NCBI GenBank assembly: GCA_041737595.1
Contig: JBGSRK010000009.1
Location: forward strand, 43,233 to 107,232
From: Patescibacteria group bacterium
GTDB lineage: Bacteria; Patescibacteriota; CPR2; UBA1875
Length of the DNA stretch: 64,000 bases
Direction: 5' to 3'
The position numbers and the translations under genes were made by a program. Positions within the stretch are counted from its first letter, which is position 1. Each line of letters opens with the position of its first letter. The notes under the pieces were generated by a model. That model ran no database searches, was not told the DNA's origin, and was given only the letters and a program-made list of their open reading frames with translations. Below, in pieces: positions 901-57,222 of the stretch.

Positions 901-2130
901 TTAAACAACAAATGTAAGGGCTTTACCGATAGAATCTGCACGGCCTGTTCTACCAATTCTGTGAACATAATCATCGTAGGTTTGAGGAACAGTATAGTTT
1001 ATTACGTGAGTAACTTCTTTTATATCAAGACCTCTTGCTGCAACATCAGTTGCAACTAAGATATCTACTCGATTTTCCTTAAAATTATTAAGAGCTCTTT
1101 GTCTTTGACCTTGTCTTTTGTCTCCATGTATTGAATCAGCTTTAAAACCATGGCTAATAAGATCATTTGAAAGTTTTTCTACATCTCTTTTTGTTTCAGA
1201 AAATACTAAAACCTTATTTGCCCCTGGTTCACTCAGTAAATCTGTAAGTTTCCCAAATTTCATATCTTTACTTGTACGGATAACTTCTTGTTTTACATTA
1301 TTCGAAATTTCTTGAGATTTAACTTGCACAACAATAGGGTTATTTGAGAATATTTCAATTAAAGATTTAATTTTAGGTGGCATTGTTGCTGAGAAAAATA
1401 GACTCTGTCTTTCCTTCGGAAGTTCATTTAACATAAATTTTATTTCATCAACAAAACCCATATCAAGCATACGATCCACCTCATCAAGTATCACATTTTT
1501 AAAAGTATGAAGCCTTATTAAACCTCTATCAGTTAGGTCTTTAATACGTCCAGGTGTTCCAATTATAAAATTTGGATTATGATTTTTAATATCTCTGATT
1601 TGTCGTCCAATAGGCATACCTCCAACGCAAGATACATAAAAAATTCTCATTCTGTATGAAAATTCTCTGAGCTCTGTCTCAATTTGAAGAGCAAGCTCAC
1701 GAGTCGGTGCTACTATTAATACTTTTTCAGTTCTATCTCTATATACTTTTTCAATCATAGGCAAAAGAAAAGCAGCTGTTTTACCAGTACCTGTATTTGC
1801 CATACCAATAAGATCTTTACCTTCAAGAATTGGTTTGATTGATTGATCTTGGATAGGTGTTGGAGTTCGATAGCCTTTATATTTAAGATTATCTTGTATC
1901 CCCACTGATAAATCAAAATCCAAAAAAGTATTTTTGATTACTGTTTTTACTTGCGGTTCTGCCGCTTTTTGAATCGCTTTTTGGATATAAGAATTTATAT
2001 CAAGTTTACTTTCACCTCTTCGCCCTCGATTATATTTTGGGCTATAAGTGTTGTGACCTGGTCTGCTTCTGAAATTACTTTGAGTTCTACCTCTACTAAA
2101 ACCGTTATTTGATCTTCTACTTCCTTGCAT
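901..2130 (-). CDS. DEAD-box ATP-dependent RNA helicase with N-terminal R/G/N-rich extension
   Basis: Motifs GTGKTAAFLLP (Walker A/motif I), PTRELALQ, VLDEVDRML (motif II), SAT, HRIGRTGR (motif VI). Preferred start is ATG 2130..2128 (MQGSRRSN) with a GGGAA SD; the longer ORF reaches 2187. Confidence 0.85.
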   Translation of the reverse strand: MQGSRRSNNGFSRGRTQSNFRSRPGHNTYSPKYNRGRRGESKLDINSYIQKAIQKAAEPQVKTVIKNTFLDFDLSVGIQDNLKYKGYRTPTPIQDQSIKPILEGKDLIGMANTGTGKTAAFLLPMIEKVYRDRTEKVLIVAPTRELALQIETELREFSYRMRIFYVSCVGGMPIGRQIRDIKNHNPNFIIGTPGRIKDLTDRGLIRLHTFKNVILDEVDRMLDMGFVDEIKFMLNELPKERQSLFFSATMPPKIKSLIEIFSNNPIVVQVKSQEISNNVKQEVIRTSKDMKFGKLTDLLSEPGANKVLVFSETKRDVEKLSNDLISHGFKADSIHGDKRQGQRQRALNNFKENRVDILVATDVAARGLDIKEVTHVINYTVPQTYDDYVHRIGRTGRADSIGKALTFVV

Positions 2131-2148
2131 AAAAAAAATTCCCGTCTC

Positions 2149-2163
2149 GACAAATTGTCGGAT
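2149..2163. promoter_or_regulatory. Perfect 15-nt palindrome TCGACAAATTGTCGA just upstream of the helicase start; possible operator
   Basis: Seen directly. A related TCGACAAAAT...ATTTTGTCGA hairpin core recurs in the inter-tRNA elements at 42428 and 58430. Confidence 0.25.
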
Positions 2164-2274
2164 TATTATTATTCTTTCTTTCAACAAGCTGCATAGAACG
2201 TCGAAAGAATAATACTTACGGAAATCTACAAAACTTTATTGACTCGAGAATTATATCAACTTTTTTTATGATTG

Positions 2275-2883
2275 TCAATAATACTTTATAATAGTTTCGA
2301 TAACTCGGTCTAAACTTTTTTCAGAAATCATAATTTTATTTTTTTCTAAGGTTATTCTATTTTTATAAACGTCTGTCCAAGGAATATGAATAAATAAAAA
2401 GGGTATAGGGTTTTCACTTTCTGATATTTTTTTGCTCAATAAATATATTAAAGTATTGCAAATAAACCCTTCAGAATTATTTGAAAGCTCTGCTCTTATA
2501 CCAAATTTTTCTAATTCTTTTACTAGTTGGGGAATTTTCCCCGAAGTATAATAAAATTCTTTATCCCCCTTAATAATTGGAACCCCTGAAAATTGCCTGC
2601 CTTCAGAGTCCATATATTTACTATTTTTAACATTTCTTCCTCGTGTTTCAAATCTAATAGAAGGGACTCTAGATGCAAGGCCAAAAGATATAACAATATC
2701 AGGTTTGTTTTTTTTAATAAGATCAGATGCAACTTTTACGGCATCATTATAGGAACAAGGTAATACTTTACCAATAATAATACTCCCTGCTATTTCCTTC
2801 CCATTAAGTCGGTTAATTAGATCTTGTGTAGGGTTATATTTATAATCCCCAAATGGGTAAAAACCCGTTAAAAGTACTTTTAT
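2275..2883 (-). CDS. pcp: Pyroglutamyl-peptidase I (pyrrolidone-carboxylate peptidase) with non-ATG start (ATA 2883..2881 or ATT 2886..2884)
   Basis: The open frame from the TAA at 2889..2887 reads IIKVLLTGFYPFGDYKYNPTQDLINRLNGKEIAG...SEGFICNTLIYLL...FIHIPW, i.e. MKVLVTGFEPFG-like N-terminus, catalytic Cys in GFICN and His in FIHIP. There is no ATG/GTG/TTG before the first conserved residues. GGAG lies 7 nt upstream of the ATA. Confidence 0.65.
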   Translation of the reverse strand: MKVLLTGFYPFGDYKYNPTQDLINRLNGKEIAGSIIIGKVLPCSYNDAVKVASDLIKKNKPDIVISFGLASRVPSIRFETRGRNVKNSKYMDSEGRQFSGVPIIKGDKEFYYTSGKIPQLVKELEKFGIRAELSNNSEGFICNTLIYLLSKKISESENPIPFLFIHIPWTDVYKNRITLEKNKIMISEKSLDRVIETIIKYY

Positions 2884-2904
2884 AATTTATCTCCAATACA
2901 AATA

Positions 2905-4014
2905 TTAAAAATTAAGAATGCTCTCAGGGGTTTCTCCACCTTGGCTTTTTATTTTTATCCCAGATTCTTTAACTATTGTTCCACAAACCTTTACCTTAAA
3001 TTTATATTTTTCGGCTATTTCTTTTATTTTTTTATCTTCTGGCGCGATAATAAGCATACCTTGCCCCATATTCCAAGTTTGATAAGCCTCCTTATCAGAT
3101 ACTTCTCCCATCTTTTGCATCTCTAACATTAGATCACATGGAGCAAAAAGATTTGGTAAATCTGCTCCTAGCCCTGATGGTCTTAAAATCCTGCCAAGTT
3201 TTCCTGGCACCCCTCCGCCTGTTACATGAACGACTCCATGGATTTCGGTTTTTGGCTCTTTTGAAAAACCACCAGTAAGTTCACAAATAAATTTTGAATA
3301 TATTTTAGAAGGCTCAAGTATTTTTTCTGCCAAATCTTCTTTTTTATGCCATTCATTTCCATAAGCATTTGATAATATCTTTCTGGCTAAAGAAAGTCCA
3401 TTTGATCTGAAACCACTTTCTGAAAGAGCAATAACCTTGTCCCCCTCTTTTATTTCATGGCCAGTAAACATACGATCCTTTCTGGCAAACCAAACTAGAC
3501 CAGCCCCCCAATTATAATTAAAATCACCATAGCCAGAAACTCTTGAACCAAGTTCTGCAAGTTCTCCATTAATAACTGCAACATTTGCTTCTTTTGCAGC
3601 TGCAACATAACCGACGGCTAAATCTTTAAGAAAATTTTTAAATTCAACCCCATTTTTTGAAAGACAATTTACGTCAAGGATTGAACCAATTAATACAGGT
3701 TCACCACCTCTCACTACTGCATCATCACAAACCATCGCAAAAAGATCATATGCAATTGTGTCATGTTTTCCGATTCTCTCACCTATTTCCATTTTTGTCC
3801 CAACACCATCAAAGCCAAGACACATTAATGAACCTTTTGGGAGTTCGCTTACATCAACTACTCTTACTCCGCTAAAATCGTCAAATGGGCTTATTACTTC
3901 ACCAATTTCACCTTTCCGGTTTTCCCAAGTCAATTTAGCAGCTTGAAATAATACTTTTGAAGCATCATCGCCTAATTCAATATCAACACCGGCATCTTTA
4001 TAAGAAATTCCCAT
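2905..4014 (-). CDS. purM: Phosphoribosylformylglycinamidine cyclo-ligase (AIR synthetase)
   Basis: MGISYKDAGVDIELGDDASK... has the typical PurM N-terminus, and AIR synthase-related N and C domains are recognisable. Confidence 0.9.
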   Translation of the reverse strand: MGISYKDAGVDIELGDDASKVLFQAAKLTWENRKGEIGEVISPFDDFSGVRVVDVSELPKGSLMCLGFDGVGTKMEIGERIGKHDTIAYDLFAMVCDDAVVRGGEPVLIGSILDVNCLSKNGVEFKNFLKDLAVGYVAAAKEANVAVINGELAELGSRVSGYGDFNYNWGAGLVWFARKDRMFTGHEIKEGDKVIALSESGFRSNGLSLARKILSNAYGNEWHKKEDLAEKILEPSKIYSKFICELTGGFSKEPKTEIHGVVHVTGGGVPGKLGRILRPSGLGADLPNLFAPCDLMLEMQKMGEVSDKEAYQTWNMGQGMLIIAPEDKKIKEIAEKYKFKVKVCGTIVKESGIKIKSQGGETPESILNF

Positions 4015-18791: not shown

Positions 18792-20189
18792 TTATTTATT
18801 TTTGTCTTTTGTTAATTTCACACCAGCTTCCTTTAAAAGAACATCGGGTAGTGAGGTTGGTGCTCCCGTCATAGGGTCTTTAGCATCTCCTGTTTTAGGG
18901 AATGCAATTACTTCTCGTATATTTGGCTCTTCCAAAAGAATTGAAAGTATTCTATCAATACCTAGAGCGATCCCGCCATGTGGGGGTGGAGAAAATTTAA
19001 ATGCTTTAAGCAAGTGCCCGAATCGTTCTGACATTTCATTTTTAGGGACTCCCAAAACTTCGAATATCTTTTTTTGTAATTCTTCCTCATGGATTCTAAT
19101 GCTTCCGCCGCCAATTTCAAATCCGTTTAAAACAAGGTCATAAGCTGATGCCCTAACCTTAGCTGGTTCTTTTTCTAAAAGTTTCATATCACTATCTTTG
19201 GGTCTAGTAAATGGGTGATGAGATGAAGTTAAACCATTTGAATTTTCTGTTTTTTCGAAAAGTGGAAAATCGACGACCCATGCAAATGCTAGTTCATTTT
19301 GGTCCTTTTTGTTCTTTCTAAGATCGGGCTTATCAGTTTTGTATTTTTTTATCGATTCTGAATAGTCAATCCTTGGAAATGGTTTTCCCGTAATTTTCTT
19401 TTCAGGGAAAAGCTTTGTTACAAGTTCAATAATCATCTGCTCTGTTAAAGATAAAACATCTTCTTCTTCAACAAATGACATTTCAATATCAAGTTGTGTA
19501 AATTCAGGTTGACGGTCACCCCTTTGATCTTCATCTCTAAAACAACGCGCTATCTGGAAATACTTTTCAAAACCAGCCACCATTAAAAGTTGTTTATATT
19601 GTTGAGGGGATTGGGGTAAAACAAAGAATGAACCTTTACTTAAACGAGAAGGAACAATAAATTCTCTGGCCCCCTCCGGTGTCCCCTTGGTTAAAATAGG
19701 TGTCTCTATTTCTAAAAAAGATTTTTCAGAAAGATAATTTCTTAAAAAAAGATTAAATTCATGACGTGTCTTAATATTTCGAGCCATTCTAGGTGTTCTA
19801 AGATCTAAATAACGATATTTAAATCGAGTTTCTTCATTCACATTACTTGTTGATTTATTAATTTCAAAAGGCGGGACCTCACAACTAGAAACTAGAGAGA
19901 TGGATTCTGAAGCTAATTCTAAGTTGCCATTTTTTAGTTCTGGATTCACAAGTTTATCTGGTCTTTTTTTAACTTTACCTGTAATTGAAACTAAAAATTC
20001 TTCTCTGAAACTTTTTACCTGCTCTAAAAGATCTTTATTAAAAATAACAACCTGCACTACCCCAGATGTGTCGCGAACATCCCAAAAAACAACTTTGCCG
20101 TGATCCCGAGAATTTTCAATCCATCCAGTGATAGTCACTTCTTGATCTATTTTATCTGAAATTTTTTCAATCATTTCTCTCTTAGCCAT
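18792..20189 (-). CDS. aspS: Aspartyl-tRNA synthetase, short form lacking the GAD insertion (archaeal/non-discriminating type)
   Basis: N-terminal OB fold; FRDEDQRGDRQPEFTQLDIEMSF (motif 2 region); GGGSIRIH (motif 3). Length is 465 aa. Confidence 0.9.
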   Translation of the reverse strand: MAKREMIEKISDKIDQEVTITGWIENSRDHGKVVFWDVRDTSGVVQVVIFNKDLLEQVKSFREEFLVSITGKVKKRPDKLVNPELKNGNLELASESISLVSSCEVPPFEINKSTSNVNEETRFKYRYLDLRTPRMARNIKTRHEFNLFLRNYLSEKSFLEIETPILTKGTPEGAREFIVPSRLSKGSFFVLPQSPQQYKQLLMVAGFEKYFQIARCFRDEDQRGDRQPEFTQLDIEMSFVEEEDVLSLTEQMIIELVTKLFPEKKITGKPFPRIDYSESIKKYKTDKPDLRKNKKDQNELAFAWVVDFPLFEKTENSNGLTSSHHPFTRPKDSDMKLLEKEPAKVRASAYDLVLNGFEIGGGSIRIHEEELQKKIFEVLGVPKNEMSERFGHLLKAFKFSPPPHGGIALGIDRILSILLEEPNIREVIAFPKTGDAKDPMTGAPTSLPDVLLKEAGVKLTKDKNK

Positions 20190-20293: not shown

Positions 20294-21202
20294 TTATTTT
20301 AGGTTTTTTGGTTTTAAATTATAATCATTACGAATGTCTCGTTGCTTACCATCTATCTCTACTGTTGCCATTACAGGATCTTCAATTCCAATAGCGTATG
20401 CGAGTTTAACGAGTACTTCTTGAGCTTTTTCTTTCTTAAGTATTTCAAGAGCTATTTCCCTAGCTTTTTTGGCACCTGATCTATCTACCTTTGTGTAATC
20501 TTTACCAGAAAAAGCGCCGCCGCCAACAGGTATTTCTGGACCATAGGCGTCAACAACTATTTTTCTTCCCGTTAAACCTGTATCAGCTTCAAATCCACCA
20601 ACCGTAAATTCACCAGTTGGGTTAATAAGAATGTTTTTTGGTTTATATCTTTTTGCTAAATCATATAAAGGGGTTAAATCTTGGCCTTTTTTATGTTGTG
20701 CTGAGATAACAATGGTTTCTACTTCATTTTTTTTATTAATTGTAACTTGGCTCTTTGCGTCTGGACCGAAATTTTTAGGTAGTTCTTCTATAATTTTTTT
20801 AGCTAGATAATATTCTTGAGGTAAATATTCTTCATTATCAGAACAAGCGTAACCAATCATGATACCTTGGTCACCAGCACCTCCAGAATCTACCCCTAGC
20901 GCGATATTTGGACTTTGTTTAACTATATTTACTGTAATATCTAATTTATCTTTATATCCAATCGATTCATATTTATCTTGAGCTATTTTCTTTACATCTA
21001 CATCATGTTTAGATGTTATCTCACCCATAATATATAATTTGCCGTGTCCACCCATGCACTCTACAGCAACTCGGCTATCTTTGTCTTTTTCTAAATACGC
21101 GTCCAGAATTGCATCAGATATTGCATCACACATTTTATCTGGATGCCCAGCTGAAACATATTCAGCAGTTCTAATCCCTTTAGTAGTTACAAAATTCTTC
21201 AT
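20294..21202 (-). CDS. metK: S-adenosylmethionine synthetase (compact, ~303 aa)
   Basis: AEYVSAGHPDKMCDAISDAILDA; GGAGDQGIMIGYA; GGGAFSGKDYTKVDRSGA. Start ATG 21202..21200 has AAGGAG 5 nt upstream. Confidence 0.85.
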   Translation of the reverse strand: MKNFVTTKGIRTAEYVSAGHPDKMCDAISDAILDAYLEKDKDSRVAVECMGGHGKLYIMGEITSKHDVDVKKIAQDKYESIGYKDKLDITVNIVKQSPNIALGVDSGGAGDQGIMIGYACSDNEEYLPQEYYLAKKIIEELPKNFGPDAKSQVTINKKNEVETIVISAQHKKGQDLTPLYDLAKRYKPKNILINPTGEFTVGGFEADTGLTGRKIVVDAYGPEIPVGGGAFSGKDYTKVDRSGAKKAREIALEILKKEKAQEVLVKLAYAIGIEDPVMATVEIDGKQRDIRNDYNLKPKNLK

Positions 21203-21216
21203 TTTTTCTCCTTTTA

Positions 21217-21248
21217 AACAAAAAAATCTTTCCGTATGGAAAGACTTC
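21217..21248 (-). terminator. Attenuator terminator of the metK leader
   Basis: On the minus strand, AAGTCTTTCC-ATAC-GGAAAGATTT is followed by TTTTTG, immediately before the metK SD. Confidence 0.6.
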
Positions 21249-21261
21249 TTAACTTTAGTTA

Positions 21262-21358
21262 ATACTCGTATCTTCCCACTTTCGTGGCTGGATTTAGCAC
21301 CGTTGTTATCCGGTTGTTGGTAGATCACTGGGCCAGGTCCCTAACTACACTCTCAATA
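21262..21358 (-). promoter_or_regulatory. SAM-I (S-box) riboswitch aptamer upstream of metK
   Basis: Minus strand: UAUUGAGAGUGUAGUUAGGGACCUGGCCCAGUGAUCUACCAACAACCGG...GGUGCUAAAUCCAGCCACGAAAGUGGGAAGAUACGAGUA. This matches the S-box consensus blocks AGGGAC.UGGCCC..UGA, GCAACC, GGUGCUAAUUCC.GC and GAAAGAUGAG, with P1 UAUUG/CGAGUA. Confidence 0.7.
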
Positions 21359-21409
21359 TATTCCTTTGTATTAATATTATATCATATTAATTTTATAAAC
21401 CCCCTATAA

Positions 21410-23835: not shown

Positions 23836-24669
23836 ATGTATATTTTTTTTAGATTTTTCACTAGAGGTATGTCCCATTTCTTCGAATCTATAAAGCTTGC
23901 ATTTTCTTGTAATAAGTCCTATAAACAGTCTATCAAACCATTAATCGAAAAAATTTATAACTGTATGTTTTTTAATCCAAAGAAGAAAAATGAATGGAAG
24001 TTTTGGGATTATAAAATGTCAAAAAAAGTTAGTGAAATTATTAAGGGAGGGGAATTTAAGGAAATAGAAGATCCGGTAGAAAAAAAGTTTTATTTTTGGT
24101 TATTAGAAGAATTGTCTAATGATATTAACTTTAATAAATTAAACACCCTTGAGTTAGGTGCAGGTTCTGGAGCTTTTTCCTATTATTTACAGAAGCGCTT
24201 CAGATGCTCGGTTACACTTTTAGATAATAGTAAAAATGCCATTAAATACGCAAAGTTACTAAACTATAGAGCAAAAATATTAGAAAAAGATGCTCGGCAG
24301 TCATTTGGTATCAGTAAATATAATTTTATTCATACAACTGGGTTACTTGAACACCTTAATGACAAAGATATAAAACAAATAATCAAAAACATTAAGCGAG
24401 CCTTAAAACCTAATGGTATAGCCTTCTTAGCAGTCCCAAATTATTTTAGCCCAGCATTAATAACACTATGGAAAATTCACGGCAAGGGTTCAGAAAGGTA
24501 TATAACAATAAGAGATCTTAAAAAATATATAAAATCTTATGGATTTAACTTGATTGCAGCTCGTCATTCGTATTTTAGTTTTGAAAAGATAACAAGATAT
24601 ATCTGGTTGGAGAAAATAATAGGTAGACTCGGTCTAGGCTTTTTAAATTATATTATTGTACAAAAATGA
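23836..24669 (+). CDS. Class I SAM-dependent methyltransferase
   Basis: LELGAGSGAFSYYL (motif I) ... LLDNS ... LKPNGIAFLAVP. Confidence 0.7.
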   Translation: MYIFFRFFTRGMSHFFESIKLAFSCNKSYKQSIKPLIEKIYNCMFFNPKKKNEWKFWDYKMSKKVSEIIKGGEFKEIEDPVEKKFYFWLLEELSNDINFNKLNTLELGAGSGAFSYYLQKRFRCSVTLLDNSKNAIKYAKLLNYRAKILEKDARQSFGISKYNFIHTTGLLEHLNDKDIKQIIKNIKRALKPNGIAFLAVPNYFSPALITLWKIHGKGSERYITIRDLKKYIKSYGFNLIAARHSYFSFEKITRYIWLEKIIGRLGLGFLNYIIVQK

Positions 24670-24946
24670 AAACCAATAACGAACATTCAAATTATTAAAA
24701 ACTTATATCTTGGTTACCAATTTATAATTTTTAAGGTTGAAAAATAATATAATGAGTTAGTTTATTTGTATTATTTGTAATTTTAGTTTAAAAGGAGAAT
24801 TATTATATGACTAGATAAAAAATAATTTCTGAAATGTTTATTACTAACCAAAAGATTAAAATGGCTATTTAATATATTATAGATTCTTATTGAATTTATT
24901 ACGATTATGGCTTATTATTAATGAAATATTAAAAAAAGGAAAAATC

Positions 24947-25963
24947 ATGTATATATATAATAAAAAATATTTCATTGTTACACTGGTTGTATTGGCTTTA
25001 TTCCTAATTACATGTATCGTATTTAATATTTATATGCCAAAAAAACAGACATCTAAAACAAAAATTAGAATTGGTTGGCAAACTCCTTGGGCTATTCAAG
25101 GACAAATAGCTCAAAGTTTAAAAAATACTGATTATTTATCAAAAAATAATCTAGAACCAGAGTTTACTGGTTTTGATTCTGGTGCTCCTCTTAATGAGGC
25201 TGCGTTAGCAGGTAAAGTAGATGTTATATTTACTGCGGATCAACCAGCCGCTACATTATTATCTAAAAGCAGTGACTGGGTAATTGTTTCGCGATTGATG
25301 TATAATAGGGTTTCTCTGTATGTACCACCAAAATCAAGTATTTTAAGCATATCTGATTTAAAAGGGAAAACAGTTGGTATGCCATTTGGGGCAGCGGCAC
25401 AGAGAATGGCTTATAAAGCAGAACAAGATATGGGGCTAAAACCAGGCATAGATGTGAAAAATGTAAACCTGGGAATCTATGAACAAAGTGATTTGGTAAA
25501 AAATTCTGAAGCAACTAATTGGGGCAACTTTGATGCCTTAGCAGGTTTTGATCCGACCCCAGCTGTATTTGAAGATAAGGGACTTATAAAGATGCTTAAA
25601 ACCGATACTGTTATTTCACTAGTACTTGTAAACAAAAAATATATTTCTGAAAATACTGACTCAGTTCGTAGTTTTCTAAAATCACTTAAGTCTAGTTATC
25701 TATTTTATGCACAAAATCAGGAAAAAGCTAACAAATGGTTTAAGGATGCTTCTAGACTAAATATCTCGGATAATGCACTAAAAATTTCTGCCTCTGTTGA
25801 ACCAAACTTAAAAGCAAAAAAAGAAAAAGATATAATACTTAATTTAAATGATAATGATTATAAAATAATGCAGGAAGCTGCAGACTTTTTATTCAATAAT
25901 GGTTTAATAAAAACTAAGGTTGATATGCGAGCTAATGTGAATTTAGATTATCTTACAAAGTAA
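24947..25963 (+). CDS. ABC transporter substrate-binding protein, NMT1/THI5-like (NitT/TauT family)
   Basis: N-terminal TM anchor, then IRIGWQTPWAIQGQIAQ...FDSGAPLNEAALAGKVDVIFTADQPA. Confidence 0.75.
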   Translation: MYIYNKKYFIVTLVVLALFLITCIVFNIYMPKKQTSKTKIRIGWQTPWAIQGQIAQSLKNTDYLSKNNLEPEFTGFDSGAPLNEAALAGKVDVIFTADQPAATLLSKSSDWVIVSRLMYNRVSLYVPPKSSILSISDLKGKTVGMPFGAAAQRMAYKAEQDMGLKPGIDVKNVNLGIYEQSDLVKNSEATNWGNFDALAGFDPTPAVFEDKGLIKMLKTDTVISLVLVNKKYISENTDSVRSFLKSLKSSYLFYAQNQEKANKWFKDASRLNISDNALKISASVEPNLKAKKEKDIILNLNDNDYKIMQEAADFLFNNGLIKTKVDMRANVNLDYLTK

Positions 25964-54769: not shown

Positions 54770-54866
54770 TTGTCTGCTCCTTCTACGACTAAGCTACAAC
54801 TGCAGAACGCCGCTATTCTAACATAAAATATTAGTTTTTTCAATAAATTATGCTATAATTTGCATA

Positions 54867-55056
54867 TAAAAGCGTATAAGTCAGCTAGTCACTGATGAGC
54901 ATTGGGAAGAAATCGAAAGAAAGTAGACCCCAACGGGTAAGCCCGTAATAGCAGGAATGAAGAGCCCTCGCGCCTGCCTGTCGCAGACAGGGAATTGGGG
55001 TGGTACCTCCGCCGACAAGCGGACCCCAAGTGCAGGGATTTTTTTATAGGAGAAAA
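54867..55056 (+). promoter_or_regulatory. T-box leader upstream of valS (putative -10 TATAAT at 54854..54859)
   Basis: AAUUGGGGUGGUACCUCCG at 54993..55010 matches the T-box sequence AAnnnGGGUGGnACCnCGG with a UGGU bulge (discriminator A). There are GA-motif-like UGAUGAG/UGAAGAG at the Stem I base and a GUA Val codon at 54923..54925 in the candidate specifier loop. Confidence 0.5.
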
Positions 55057-57222
55057 ATGAAAGAACTACCAAAACATTTTGATTTTTTAGATCAAACAAA
55101 AATATATAAACTATGGGAAGATGGGGGATATTTTAAACCAGTAAAAAAAGCTGGCGTTAAGCCTTTTTCTATCATTATGCCGCCGCCAAATGCAAATGGT
55201 TTTCTGCATATTGGCCATGCTGTTTTTGTTACACTTGAAGATATAACTATTAGATATCACAGAATGAAAGGGGAACCAACTCTTTGGCTTCCGGGGGCAG
55301 ATCATGCAGGGATTCAAACACAGGTTGTTTATGAAAAAGAGCTTTTAAAACAAGGTAAAACTCGCTTTGATTTAGGTAGAGACGAATTTTATAAACAAAC
55401 ATATGATTTCACAATGGGAAATAAGAAAATTATGGAAAACCAACTTCGAGAACTTGGAGCGAGTTGTGATTGGTCTCGAGAACACTTTACTTTAGAACCA
55501 GATATTTCAAAATCAGTTTATTATACTTTTAAAAAAATGTATGACGATGGCTTAATCTATCGAGGAGAAAGAATAATTAATTGGTGTCCAAGATGTGGGA
55601 CAGCTTTATCTGATATTGAGGTTATACATAAAGAAAAAGAAGGGAAACTAACATATATAAAATATCCGATAGAGAATAGTAATGACTTTATAACTGTTGC
55701 AACAACAAGACCAGAAACAATGCTCGGAGACACCGCCGTTGCTGTAAACCCAGGTGATAAAAGATATAAAAAATATATTGGTCTTAATCTAATTTTGCCT
55801 TTATCAAGCCGTAAAATACCAATAATATCTGATGAGGCAGTAGATATTACTTTTGGAACTGGAGCAGTTAAAATTACACCAGCGCACGACCCATTAGATT
55901 TTGAAATATCAGAAAGACATAATTTAGATGTTATTGAAATTATTAGTAAAGATTTAAAAATGACAAAAGAAGCAGGTAGTAAATACAGTGGCCTAAAATA
56001 TAATGTAGCCAGAGAAAAAGTTATTGAAAATCTTAAAAAATTAAATTTGGTTGAGAAACAAGATAACTTTATTCATTCAGTTGGAACGTGTGAAAGATGT
56101 AAATCAACTATTGAGCCATTAATATCAAAGCAATGGTTTGTAAAGATAAAACCTTTAGCTGAAAAAGCAATTAAGTCAGTAAAATCAGGTGAAATTAAAT
56201 TTACTCCAAAAAGATATGAAAAAGTTTATTTTAATTGGATGGAAAATATTCGTGATTGGTGTATTTCAAGACAAATATGGTGGGGGCATAGAATCCCGGT
56301 ATATTATTGCCAAGACTGTGGCGAGATTATAGTAGAGGTGGAGGCTCCGAATAAATGTAAATGTGGAAGCAAAAACATAATGCAAGATCCTGATACTCTT
56401 GATACTTGGTTTTCGTCAGGGCAGTGGCCTTTTAACACTTTAGGATGGGATAAGGAAGTATCAAAGGGCAAAAAATCAAAAAATGGTGATTTTGAATACT
56501 TTTATCCAACTTCAGTAATGGAAACTGGAATGGATATTTTATTTTTCTGGGTTGCAAGAATGATTATGCTTGGGATATATTGCACCGGTAAACCTCCGTT
56601 TACTGAGGTAGTTCTACACGGTCTTGTTAGAGATAATGATCGTCAAAAGATGTCAAAATCAAAGGGTAATTCGGTTGATCCCCTTGGAATTGTTGAAATA
56701 TATGGGACAGATGCTATAAGAATGGCACTTGTTTTTGGAACAGGTATTGGGAATGATATTGTTATTTCAGAGGATAAAATTAAAGGATTTCGTAATTTCA
56801 GTACAAAAATATGGAATGCTTCTAGATATATACTTATGAATTTAGATGGATATAAAAATGTTCCACGTGGAACATTAGAAAAGATGTTTACTAAAGAGGA
56901 TCTGTGGATAATTAAAGAATTTGAAAAAACTACTGAAAAAATAACAAATTCACTTGAAAAACATAATTTTCATCATGCTGCCGAAGAAATATATGAATTT
57001 TTCTGGCATAAATTTTGTGACAAAACAATTGAAGATACAAAAAAACGCATATATGAGGGTTCAGATAAGGAAAAAATGGTTGCAAAATGGGTATTATTTA
57101 ATGTTTTATCTGGATCATTAAAGTTATTACATCCATTTATGCCTTTTGTAACAGAAGCAATTTGGCAGAATCTAAATAATAAAACACCTTTAATTGTATC
57201 TGAATGGCCTAAAAAGCTATAA
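55057..57222 (+). CDS. valS: Valyl-tRNA synthetase (compact, lacks the C-terminal coiled-coil)
   Basis: PPPNANGFLHIGHA (HIGH), KMSKSKGN, and editing-domain and anticodon-binding regions. Start ATG 55057 has AGGAG upstream. Confidence 0.85.
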   Translation: MKELPKHFDFLDQTKIYKLWEDGGYFKPVKKAGVKPFSIIMPPPNANGFLHIGHAVFVTLEDITIRYHRMKGEPTLWLPGADHAGIQTQVVYEKELLKQGKTRFDLGRDEFYKQTYDFTMGNKKIMENQLRELGASCDWSREHFTLEPDISKSVYYTFKKMYDDGLIYRGERIINWCPRCGTALSDIEVIHKEKEGKLTYIKYPIENSNDFITVATTRPETMLGDTAVAVNPGDKRYKKYIGLNLILPLSSRKIPIISDEAVDITFGTGAVKITPAHDPLDFEISERHNLDVIEIISKDLKMTKEAGSKYSGLKYNVAREKVIENLKKLNLVEKQDNFIHSVGTCERCKSTIEPLISKQWFVKIKPLAEKAIKSVKSGEIKFTPKRYEKVYFNWMENIRDWCISRQIWWGHRIPVYYCQDCGEIIVEVEAPNKCKCGSKNIMQDPDTLDTWFSSGQWPFNTLGWDKEVSKGKKSKNGDFEYFYPTSVMETGMDILFFWVARMIMLGIYCTGKPPFTEVVLHGLVRDNDRQKMSKSKGNSVDPLGIVEIYGTDAIRMALVFGTGIGNDIVISEDKIKGFRNFSTKIWNASRYILMNLDGYKNVPRGTLEKMFTKEDLWIIKEFEKTTEKITNSLEKHNFHHAAEEIYEFFWHKFCDKTIEDTKKRIYEGSDKEKMVAKWVLFNVLSGSLKLLHPFMPFVTEAIWQNLNNKTPLIVSEWPKKL
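56857..56876. repeat. 20-nt perfect palindrome AATGTTCCACGTGGAACATT inside the valS coding sequence
   Basis: It encodes NVPRGT. The 18-nt core ATGTTCCACGTGGAACAT is shared with 57221..57254 and 58171..58198. Confidence 0.5.

Follow-up and report, generated by a model that had tools for sequence, protein, structure and literature searches.

The window, by which we mean the whole 64-kb stretch of DNA analysed here, has a GC content of approximately 32%. Its GC skew is negative over positions 1-24000 and positive from 24001 onwards, with a cumulative minimum near 24 kb; most genes before approximately 24 kb lie on the minus strand, and the interval 24000-25000 is possibly the site of a replication origin or of some other strand switch. 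Within the minus-strand part, a gap of 207 nt separates the end of a DUF1295 gene (21410) from the ATG (21202) of metK, which encodes a compact S-adenosylmethionine synthetase, and this gap holds the SAM-I (S-box) element described here. A neighbouring gene (18792-20189, minus strand) encodes a short, 465-aa form of AspRS in which domain matches were confined to the OB anticodon-binding domain and the class II core; its length is the same across the Patescibacteria homologues. In a promoter and terminator pattern scan, a terminator-like site follows metK and a promoter-like site is found for aspS and, since both come after metK, the gene appears to be controlled alone. The features of the metK leader and gene are as follows.

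20294-21202, minus strand: metK, a compact S-adenosylmethionine synthetase of 302 aa (three Pfam MetK domains)
21208-21213, minus strand: Shine-Dalgarno sequence AAGGAG, 5 nt before the ATG (sequence and mapped coordinates)
21216-21247, minus strand: predicted intrinsic terminator with a 10-bp stem AAGUCUUUCC/GGAAAGAUUU, loop AUAC and a U7GU3 tract (fold and mapped coordinates)
21236-21279, minus strand: predicted antiterminator (ViennaRNA, -12.3 kcal/mol)
21265-21362, minus strand: SAM-I (S-box) aptamer, a four-way junction of P1-P4 (RF00162, 43.7 bits; lineage-tuned model R1, 84.6 bits)
21276-21287, minus strand: P4 hairpin CCAC-GAAA-GUGG (Rfam alignment, fold and mapped coordinates)
21296-21318, minus strand: P3, AACAACCG ... 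CGGUGCU (Rfam alignment and mapped coordinates)
21319-21350, minus strand: P2 with its k-turn (Rfam alignment and mapped coordinates)
21333-21336, minus strand: 5' strand of the pseudoknot, CUGG in the P2 loop, forming four Watson-Crick pairs with CCAG in J3/4 (21291-21288)
21355-21358, minus strand: 5' strand of P1, UAUU, pairing with GAUA at 21272-21269 (Rfam alignment and coordinates)
21376-21384, minus strand: promoter-like extended -10 element TGATATAAT (read off the sequence)

At 302 aa, MetK is shorter than the solved enzymes (approximately 385-400 aa); compared with PDB 3iml, it has several internal loop deletions and has lost some 60 C-terminal residues, while the catalytic motifs are kept. 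It matches all three Pfam MetK domains, and its homologues of 300-340 aa are labelled Berkelbacteria, Komeilibacteria, Parcubacteria or Patescibacteria. This short form is common to hundreds of Patescibacteria homologues. For MetK as for AspRS, the closest named relatives belong to Patescibacteria, in agreement with an earlier, sequence-only reading of this DNA, which had taken the genome to be CPR-like.

In the public record, metK (P0001) is listed as a 344-aa product starting at GTG 21328, from which the frame is indeed open, so that the leader would be the N-terminus of MetK. This extension (21203-21328, minus strand) begins inside the riboswitch, its GTG being the GUGA of the k-turn, and runs on through the rest of the aptamer, through the terminator and past the Shine-Dalgarno sequence. 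In the 302-aa form the conserved MetK core starts at approximately residue 8, without any conserved extension at the N-terminus. Since this core and the strong Shine-Dalgarno/ATG pair at 21213-21200 both fit the 302-aa form, the public N-terminus would be 42 aa too long. A terminator within the supposed coding sequence, together with RNA covariation rather than codon-like conservation, likewise speaks against a coding leader, a reading that we rejected and that is hardly credible.

Identity and anatomy of the aptamer

The Rfam model for SAM-I (RF00162) aligns to 21362-21265 on the minus strand over its full length (model positions 1-108) with 43.7 bits (E = 7e-9 in a 401-nt region and 1.1e-6 in the entire 64-kb window), outscoring the other members of its clan at this site in the Rfam comparison. 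The aptamer and metK share a strand, with 62 nt between the 3' end of the aptamer and the downstream ATG. The sequence-only reading had placed an S-box in this minus-strand leader at 21217-21358, a range that proves accurate, as it runs from the 5' strand of P1 to the end of the U tract. It had also claimed a match in all conserved blocks: the blocks do lie at the place given, and GAGAG, AGGGACCUGGCCCAGUGA, GGUGCUAAAUCCAGCC and GGAAGAUACGAG are present, but the block quoted as GCAACC reads ACAACC, one base off.

The score lies 0.7 bit below the Rfam gathering score of 44.4, a shortfall that the sequence-only reading had itself named as grounds for dropping its claim. Because of this small deficit the site is missed by a standard Rfam scan, and at the gathering threshold the window yielded five tRNAs only; the SAM-I match appeared only when E-value thresholds replaced the gathering threshold. 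A lineage-tuned covariance model (R1), built on a MAFFT sequence-only alignment of 17 aptamers (A2), recognizes the element at 21265-21362 (minus strand) with 84.6 bits. The idea of further S-box copies found no counterpart in the 64-kb window, where R1, run with filters off, gave nothing else above 12 bits.

A T-box had also been announced for the window, and it is represented there by a weak match only: RF00230 aligns to 54866-55030 (plus strand) with 46.3 bits (E = 5e-7) against a gathering score of 93. The match lies directly before, and slightly overlaps, an ORF of 740 aa (55000-57222) for a class I aminoacyl-tRNA synthetase of the Ile/Leu/Val type according to Pfam, and it is plausibly a reduced T-box, likewise escaping the Rfam threshold.

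After the Rfam alignment had been mapped by hand onto the numbering of Thermoanaerobacter tengcongensis (T. tengcongensis), the helices P1, P2, P3 and P4 were found in the canonical order of a four-way junction, as the full-length model alignment, the hand mapping and the covariation of every helix agree in indicating. P1 is AU-rich and comprises four contiguous pairs, of which one is a U.G replacing C8-G86; the next position is an A.C mismatch. P2a (GuGUAG/CUACC) is entirely Watson-Crick and is followed in P2 by P2b (GGG/CCC). P3 is short, with 3 bp past a bulged A and an 8-nt loop, and bears an A.C mismatch at the usual G43-C59, which results from the ACAACC block replacing the consensus GCAACC. 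This mismatch adjoins the ligand-contacting pairs of P3, C44-G58 and A45-U57, which are retained together with the bulged A46 and C47.

An unconstrained minimum-energy fold of the leader recovers neither P1 nor the junction. Such a result is expected, because the pseudoknot and the ligand are not modelled, and it was therefore rejected as a test; the aptamer fold is not self-evident by thermodynamics alone.

The binding-site list of the T. tengcongensis SAM-I crystal structure comprises 13 pocket residues (bioRxiv 10.64898/2026.03.23.713157), 11 of which are identical in the leader (A6, U7, G11, A45, A46, C47, U57, G58, C59, A87 and U88), while the remaining two, C8 replaced by U and G89 replaced by A, preserve their P1 pairs. 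The pocket is unchanged at the readers of the sulfonium (U7, U88), of the adenine (A45-U57) and of the methionine moiety (G11, C44-G58).

The k-turn of P2 departs from the standard sequence. Its non-bulged strand reads UUA (21344-21342) and its bulged strand AGUGAU (21329-21324); the essential 1b.1n G.A pair is kept, whereas U at 2n gives A.U instead of A.G, and 3n is also U. The same substitution of UUA for GGA has been engineered into the SAM-I riboswitch of T. tengcongensis as the G2nU,G3nU variant, which kept its fold in the crystal and bound SAM (Schroeder et al., 2011; PMC3651934), with a Kd of 1.95 uM against 0.54 uM for the natural sequence, that is, approximately fourfold weaker (PMC3651934). 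The leader and the engineered variant thus share U, U and A at 3n, 2n and 1n of the non-bulged strand, as well as the 1b.1n G.A pair. They differ in the 3b nucleotide, which is U here and gives U.U rather than A.U, and in that the UUA strand is natural in several lineages, namely the window and three related loci (L168, L164 and L090). The natural UUA k-turn is the biological counterpart of a structurally studied engineered variant.

These features also bear on whether the leader could be a variant of the SAM-I fold whose ligand specificity has changed or whose affinity is markedly shifted, for instance one tuned to another range of SAM or responding to SAH. The short P1, the A.C mismatch beside the pocket and a k-turn like that of the variant with weakened binding (1.95 against 0.54 uM) would fit such a change. 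Nevertheless, the pocket residues that read the sulfonium, the adenine and the methionine moiety are unchanged and the regulated gene, metK, is the classical target of SAM feedback, so that we regard such a variant as very improbable.

With respect to known SAM-I riboswitches (RF00162; for example the Bacillus subtilis (B. subtilis) metK and yitJ leaders and the T. tengcongensis metF aptamer of PDB 2GIS/3GX5), the leader has in common the P1-P4 junction, a P2 with a putative k-turn, a P2 loop that forms a pseudoknot with J3/4, the pocket nucleotides, the 5' leader position before metK, and the terminator/antiterminator logic in which the 3' strand of P1 is shared with the antiterminator. It differs in its AU-rich P1 of 4-5 bp, its minimal P3 and P4, the A.C at G43-C59, the k-turn strand UUA instead of GGA, the score 0.7 bit under the gathering score and its host, which belongs to Patescibacteria and not to Firmicutes. 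The SAM-IV (RF00634) and SAM-I/IV (RF01725) riboswitches of the same clan (CL00012) have a similar ligand-binding core of P1, P2 and P3 but, unlike the leader, have no P4 in a four-way junction and carry another peripheral pseudoknot. Both classes were rejected: the leader has its P4 (CCAC-GAAA-GUGG) in the junction, placed after J3/4 and before P1, and the overlapping clan member scored lower than RF00162. The element is an ordinary S-box in kind, with a terminator, and a further instance of the known SAM-I family.

Our search of the open-access literature retrieved neither a description of a natural riboswitch from Patescibacteria or the candidate phyla radiation nor any experiment on a riboswitch of these lineages. 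In a 2017 distribution survey, riboswitch classes were mapped to 36 bacterial divisions; the Patescibacteria lineages go unmentioned in those passages of the survey that were available.

Relatives and covariation

Related loci were collected from the contigs of the closest MetK homologues and from scans of genomes and metagenomes. When GTDB genomes were scanned with a MetK alignment, distant full-length enzymes of other phyla dominated the matches, and only approximately nine loci of the Patescibacteria type were usable. A strict regular-expression search for the S-box blocks recovered 7 of 160 loci only and was replaced by covariance models. With the latter, Rfam SAM-I matches of 28.7-71.2 bits were found in 18 of the 20 loci scanned first, 17 of them directly upstream of metK, and in 19 of 20 further loci. 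The gathering score was passed by 28 of the 39 scanned copies and missed by 11 (approximately 28%, among them the window and a locus without any match), and even the nearest relatives score low on RF00162 (L161, 43.8 bits; L166, 40.9 bits). The Rfam cut-off is too tight for SAM-I in this clade.

R1, which also matches typical Firmicutes S-boxes, detects the element just upstream of a compact metK in 40 of 75 sources, the carriers including Berkelbacteria, Saccharibacteria, Parcubacteria, Komeilibacteria and Gracilibacteria. As the alignment of these 40 sequences (A3) was fitted to the R1 model, the 17-aptamer alignment A2 is the cleaner test of covariation. In A2, 85.8% of the cells are paired, against 31-44% when the partners are slid, and changes on both sides were observed in 21 of 34 pairs; none of 500 shuffles attained the observed values. 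The corresponding figures in A3 are 85.7% of cells paired and double changes in 24 of 34 pairs. The pseudoknot is paired in 100% of cases in A2 and 97% in A3, and all four of its pairs covary, with the variants CUGG/CCAG, CUAG/CUAG, UUGG/CCAA and CCGG/CCGG among the relatives. Across the two alignments, pairing reaches 96-100% in P2 and, in A3 alone, 99-100% for this helix, which also shows covariation in the relatives; it reaches approximately 80% in P3 and 81-87% in P4, whereas P1 is conserved in the 40 relatives only over its inner 4-5 pairs.

Within this set, eight S-boxes (L122, L124, L109, L114, L134, L127, L004 and L162) share compensatory swaps (ACCAACC...GGUGGU), in which G13-C42 becomes A-U and a P3 pair changes from G-C to C-G. 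In this subgroup, L162 (Berkelbacteria) has a terminator; in the other members the terminator is missing and the aptamer extends to the start codon, which suggests translational control. In a metagenomic locus (L085), a 190-aa Cys-rich ORF, HNH-endonuclease-like as judged by eye, lies between the S-box (79-182) and metK (245-817) and seems to have been inserted into the regulated leader. On the closest large contig (L161, 842 kb; 1501-3978), metK is followed by convergent genes for S-adenosylhomocysteine hydrolase and a PfkB kinase, the three forming a small methyl-cycle cluster. In another close relative (L167, 1272-1445), the 5' half of the S-box is displaced by an insertion of approximately 70 nt, so that the R1 match spans 174 nt with only 28.7 bits for Rfam; this may be a disrupted copy.

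The last locus is relevant to the view that the window holds a decaying, non-functional S-box remnant that no longer senses SAM, with metK constitutively expressed or constitutively terminated. The visible disruption of L167, the sub-threshold Rfam score, the weak P1, the A.C mismatch in P3 and the non-standard k-turn could all be read in this way. In contrast, the pseudoknot of the window retains its 4 bp and no ligand-contact position is lost, the terminator/antiterminator pair is well balanced, and the engineered UUA variant binds SAM (PMC3651934). Moreover, the departures of the window recur in other lineages, the UUA strand in the three loci named above and the A.C mismatch of P3 in L009 and L136, which argues for tolerated variation rather than decay. 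A remnant is very improbable. The sub-threshold score in particular is overruled, because 11 of the 39 homologous copies before the same gene also miss the gathering score with the structure kept. Judged by sequence comparison, the leader is a SAM-I member in all the structural features tested, save the curated score and k-turn positions 2n and 3n, and the comparative data settle this identity despite the score.

Two origins had been proposed for an S-box in such a genome, a shared repertoire of regulatory RNAs or horizontal transfer. As the element is widespread together with the compact metK, which it tracks, its presence probably reflects inheritance within Patescibacteria and not a recent transfer; a shared inherited repertoire therefore fits, while transfer is not favoured.

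Expression platform and proposed control of metK

Downstream of the aptamer, the 10-bp hairpin, the U tract and the AAGGAG noticed in the sequence-only reading are indeed found, at 21247-21216 and 21213-21208. The terminator hairpin (21247-21224) has one G.U in its stem and is followed by U7GU3, which runs to 21216; its computed energy is -11.0 kcal/mol, or -13.2 kcal/mol when the stem is extended into the U tract. In the alternative structure, GUGGGAAGAU (21279-21270), consisting of the 3' strand of P4, J4/1 and the 3' strand of P1, forms 10 pairs with GUCUUUCCAU (21245-21236), consisting of the 5' strand and loop of the terminator, and encloses a small hairpin (UUAAC-UAAA-GUUAA). The expression platform thus shares nucleotides with P1 in the computed structures, and the antiterminator competes with the terminator. 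The antiterminator duplex reaches -13.3 kcal/mol against -6.3 for shuffles (z = -3.4), whereas P1 and P4 alone are computed at -1.8 kcal/mol. Over the whole leader, the OFF state (aptamer and terminator, -22.6 kcal/mol) and the ON state (P2, P3 and antiterminator, -20.1 kcal/mol) are nearly isoenergetic, as expected for a kinetically controlled switch in which the aptamer needs the pseudoknot and the ligand to win. The earlier proposal of a SAM-I riboswitch with an attenuator before a compact metK is thus upheld by the full-length alignment, by the covariation in 40 leaders and by the computed terminator/antiterminator alternative.

The pattern scan mentioned above listed neither the leader terminator, whose stem has only 3 G-C pairs, the minimum of that scan, nor the extended -10 element, which has no -35 hexamer. 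From this -10 element we infer a promoter, and transcription would start near 21369, approximately 10 nt before P1.

Among the 40 relatives, 31 have a hairpin and a U run within 40 nt of the aptamer, with a 5' strand that is often of the CUUUCC type. In the other nine (L122, L124, L109, L114, L134, L127, L004, L119 and L123), the terminator is absent and the aptamer abuts the start codon, so that these leaders probably act on translation and translational platforms probably exist in the group. This raises the question of whether the aptamer of the window could also be functional by acting mainly on translation initiation, or on both levels, and not by termination. However, its Shine-Dalgarno sequence, 3 nt past the U tract, is unpaired in both modelled states, and a canonical hairpin with a U7 tract and a matching antiterminator is present; translational control of this particular metK consequently has only a slim chance of being correct.

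Together, these observations suggest that the 5' leader of this monocistronic metK, from an ultrasmall Patescibacteria (candidate phyla radiation) bacterium, very probably contains a functional class I SAM riboswitch, which most likely operates as an OFF switch by transcription attenuation. In the S-box leaders of B. subtilis, the SAM-bound aptamer favours the terminator. By analogy, we infer that the aptamer of the window binds SAM and, once bound, most likely shuts off metK by termination, which would amount to feedback control of SAM synthesis. Starting from the putative promoter, near 21369, the nascent RNA would fold P2 with its k-turn, P3 and P4, and the P2 loop would dock on J3/4 as a pseudoknot. 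With SAM bound, the 3' strands of P4 and P1 would be held in the aptamer, the 10-bp hairpin and U tract could form, and RNA polymerase would stop before the Shine-Dalgarno sequence. At low SAM, P1 and P4 would be too weak (-1.8 kcal/mol) to retain their 3' strands, which would instead pair with the 5' strand of the terminator as the 10-bp antiterminator (-12.3 kcal/mol), and metK would be transcribed and translated. This model predicts that mutation of GUCUUUCC should lead to constitutive termination, and mutation of the 3' strand of P1 to constitutive read-through.

The metK leader does not change the understanding of SAM-I riboswitches, being a textbook regulatory RNA, and it matters mainly for a score just under the cut-off and for its annotation as coding sequence. 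In practical terms, the Rfam gathering score misses approximately 28% of the S-box copies associated with compact metK, and the gene call in the public record extends the metK frame through the aptamer, from the GUG of the k-turn. Beyond this, S-box feedback control of SAM synthesis is probably common in Patescibacteria, an under-studied group. We also put forward, as a tentative idea that is less probable than its opposite, that across the Patescibacteria clade a sub-population of SAM-I riboswitches has been inherited vertically, its members having a minimal P1 of 4-5 bp and, in several lineages, a natural U at 2n and 3n of the k-turn. Approximately a quarter of its members would escape the Rfam threshold, and would for this reason remain unannotated, with the N-termini of their metK mis-called. 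If this is so, the SAM set-point could be altered by the weaker P1 and k-turn, in organisms that are host-dependent and unable to make methionine.
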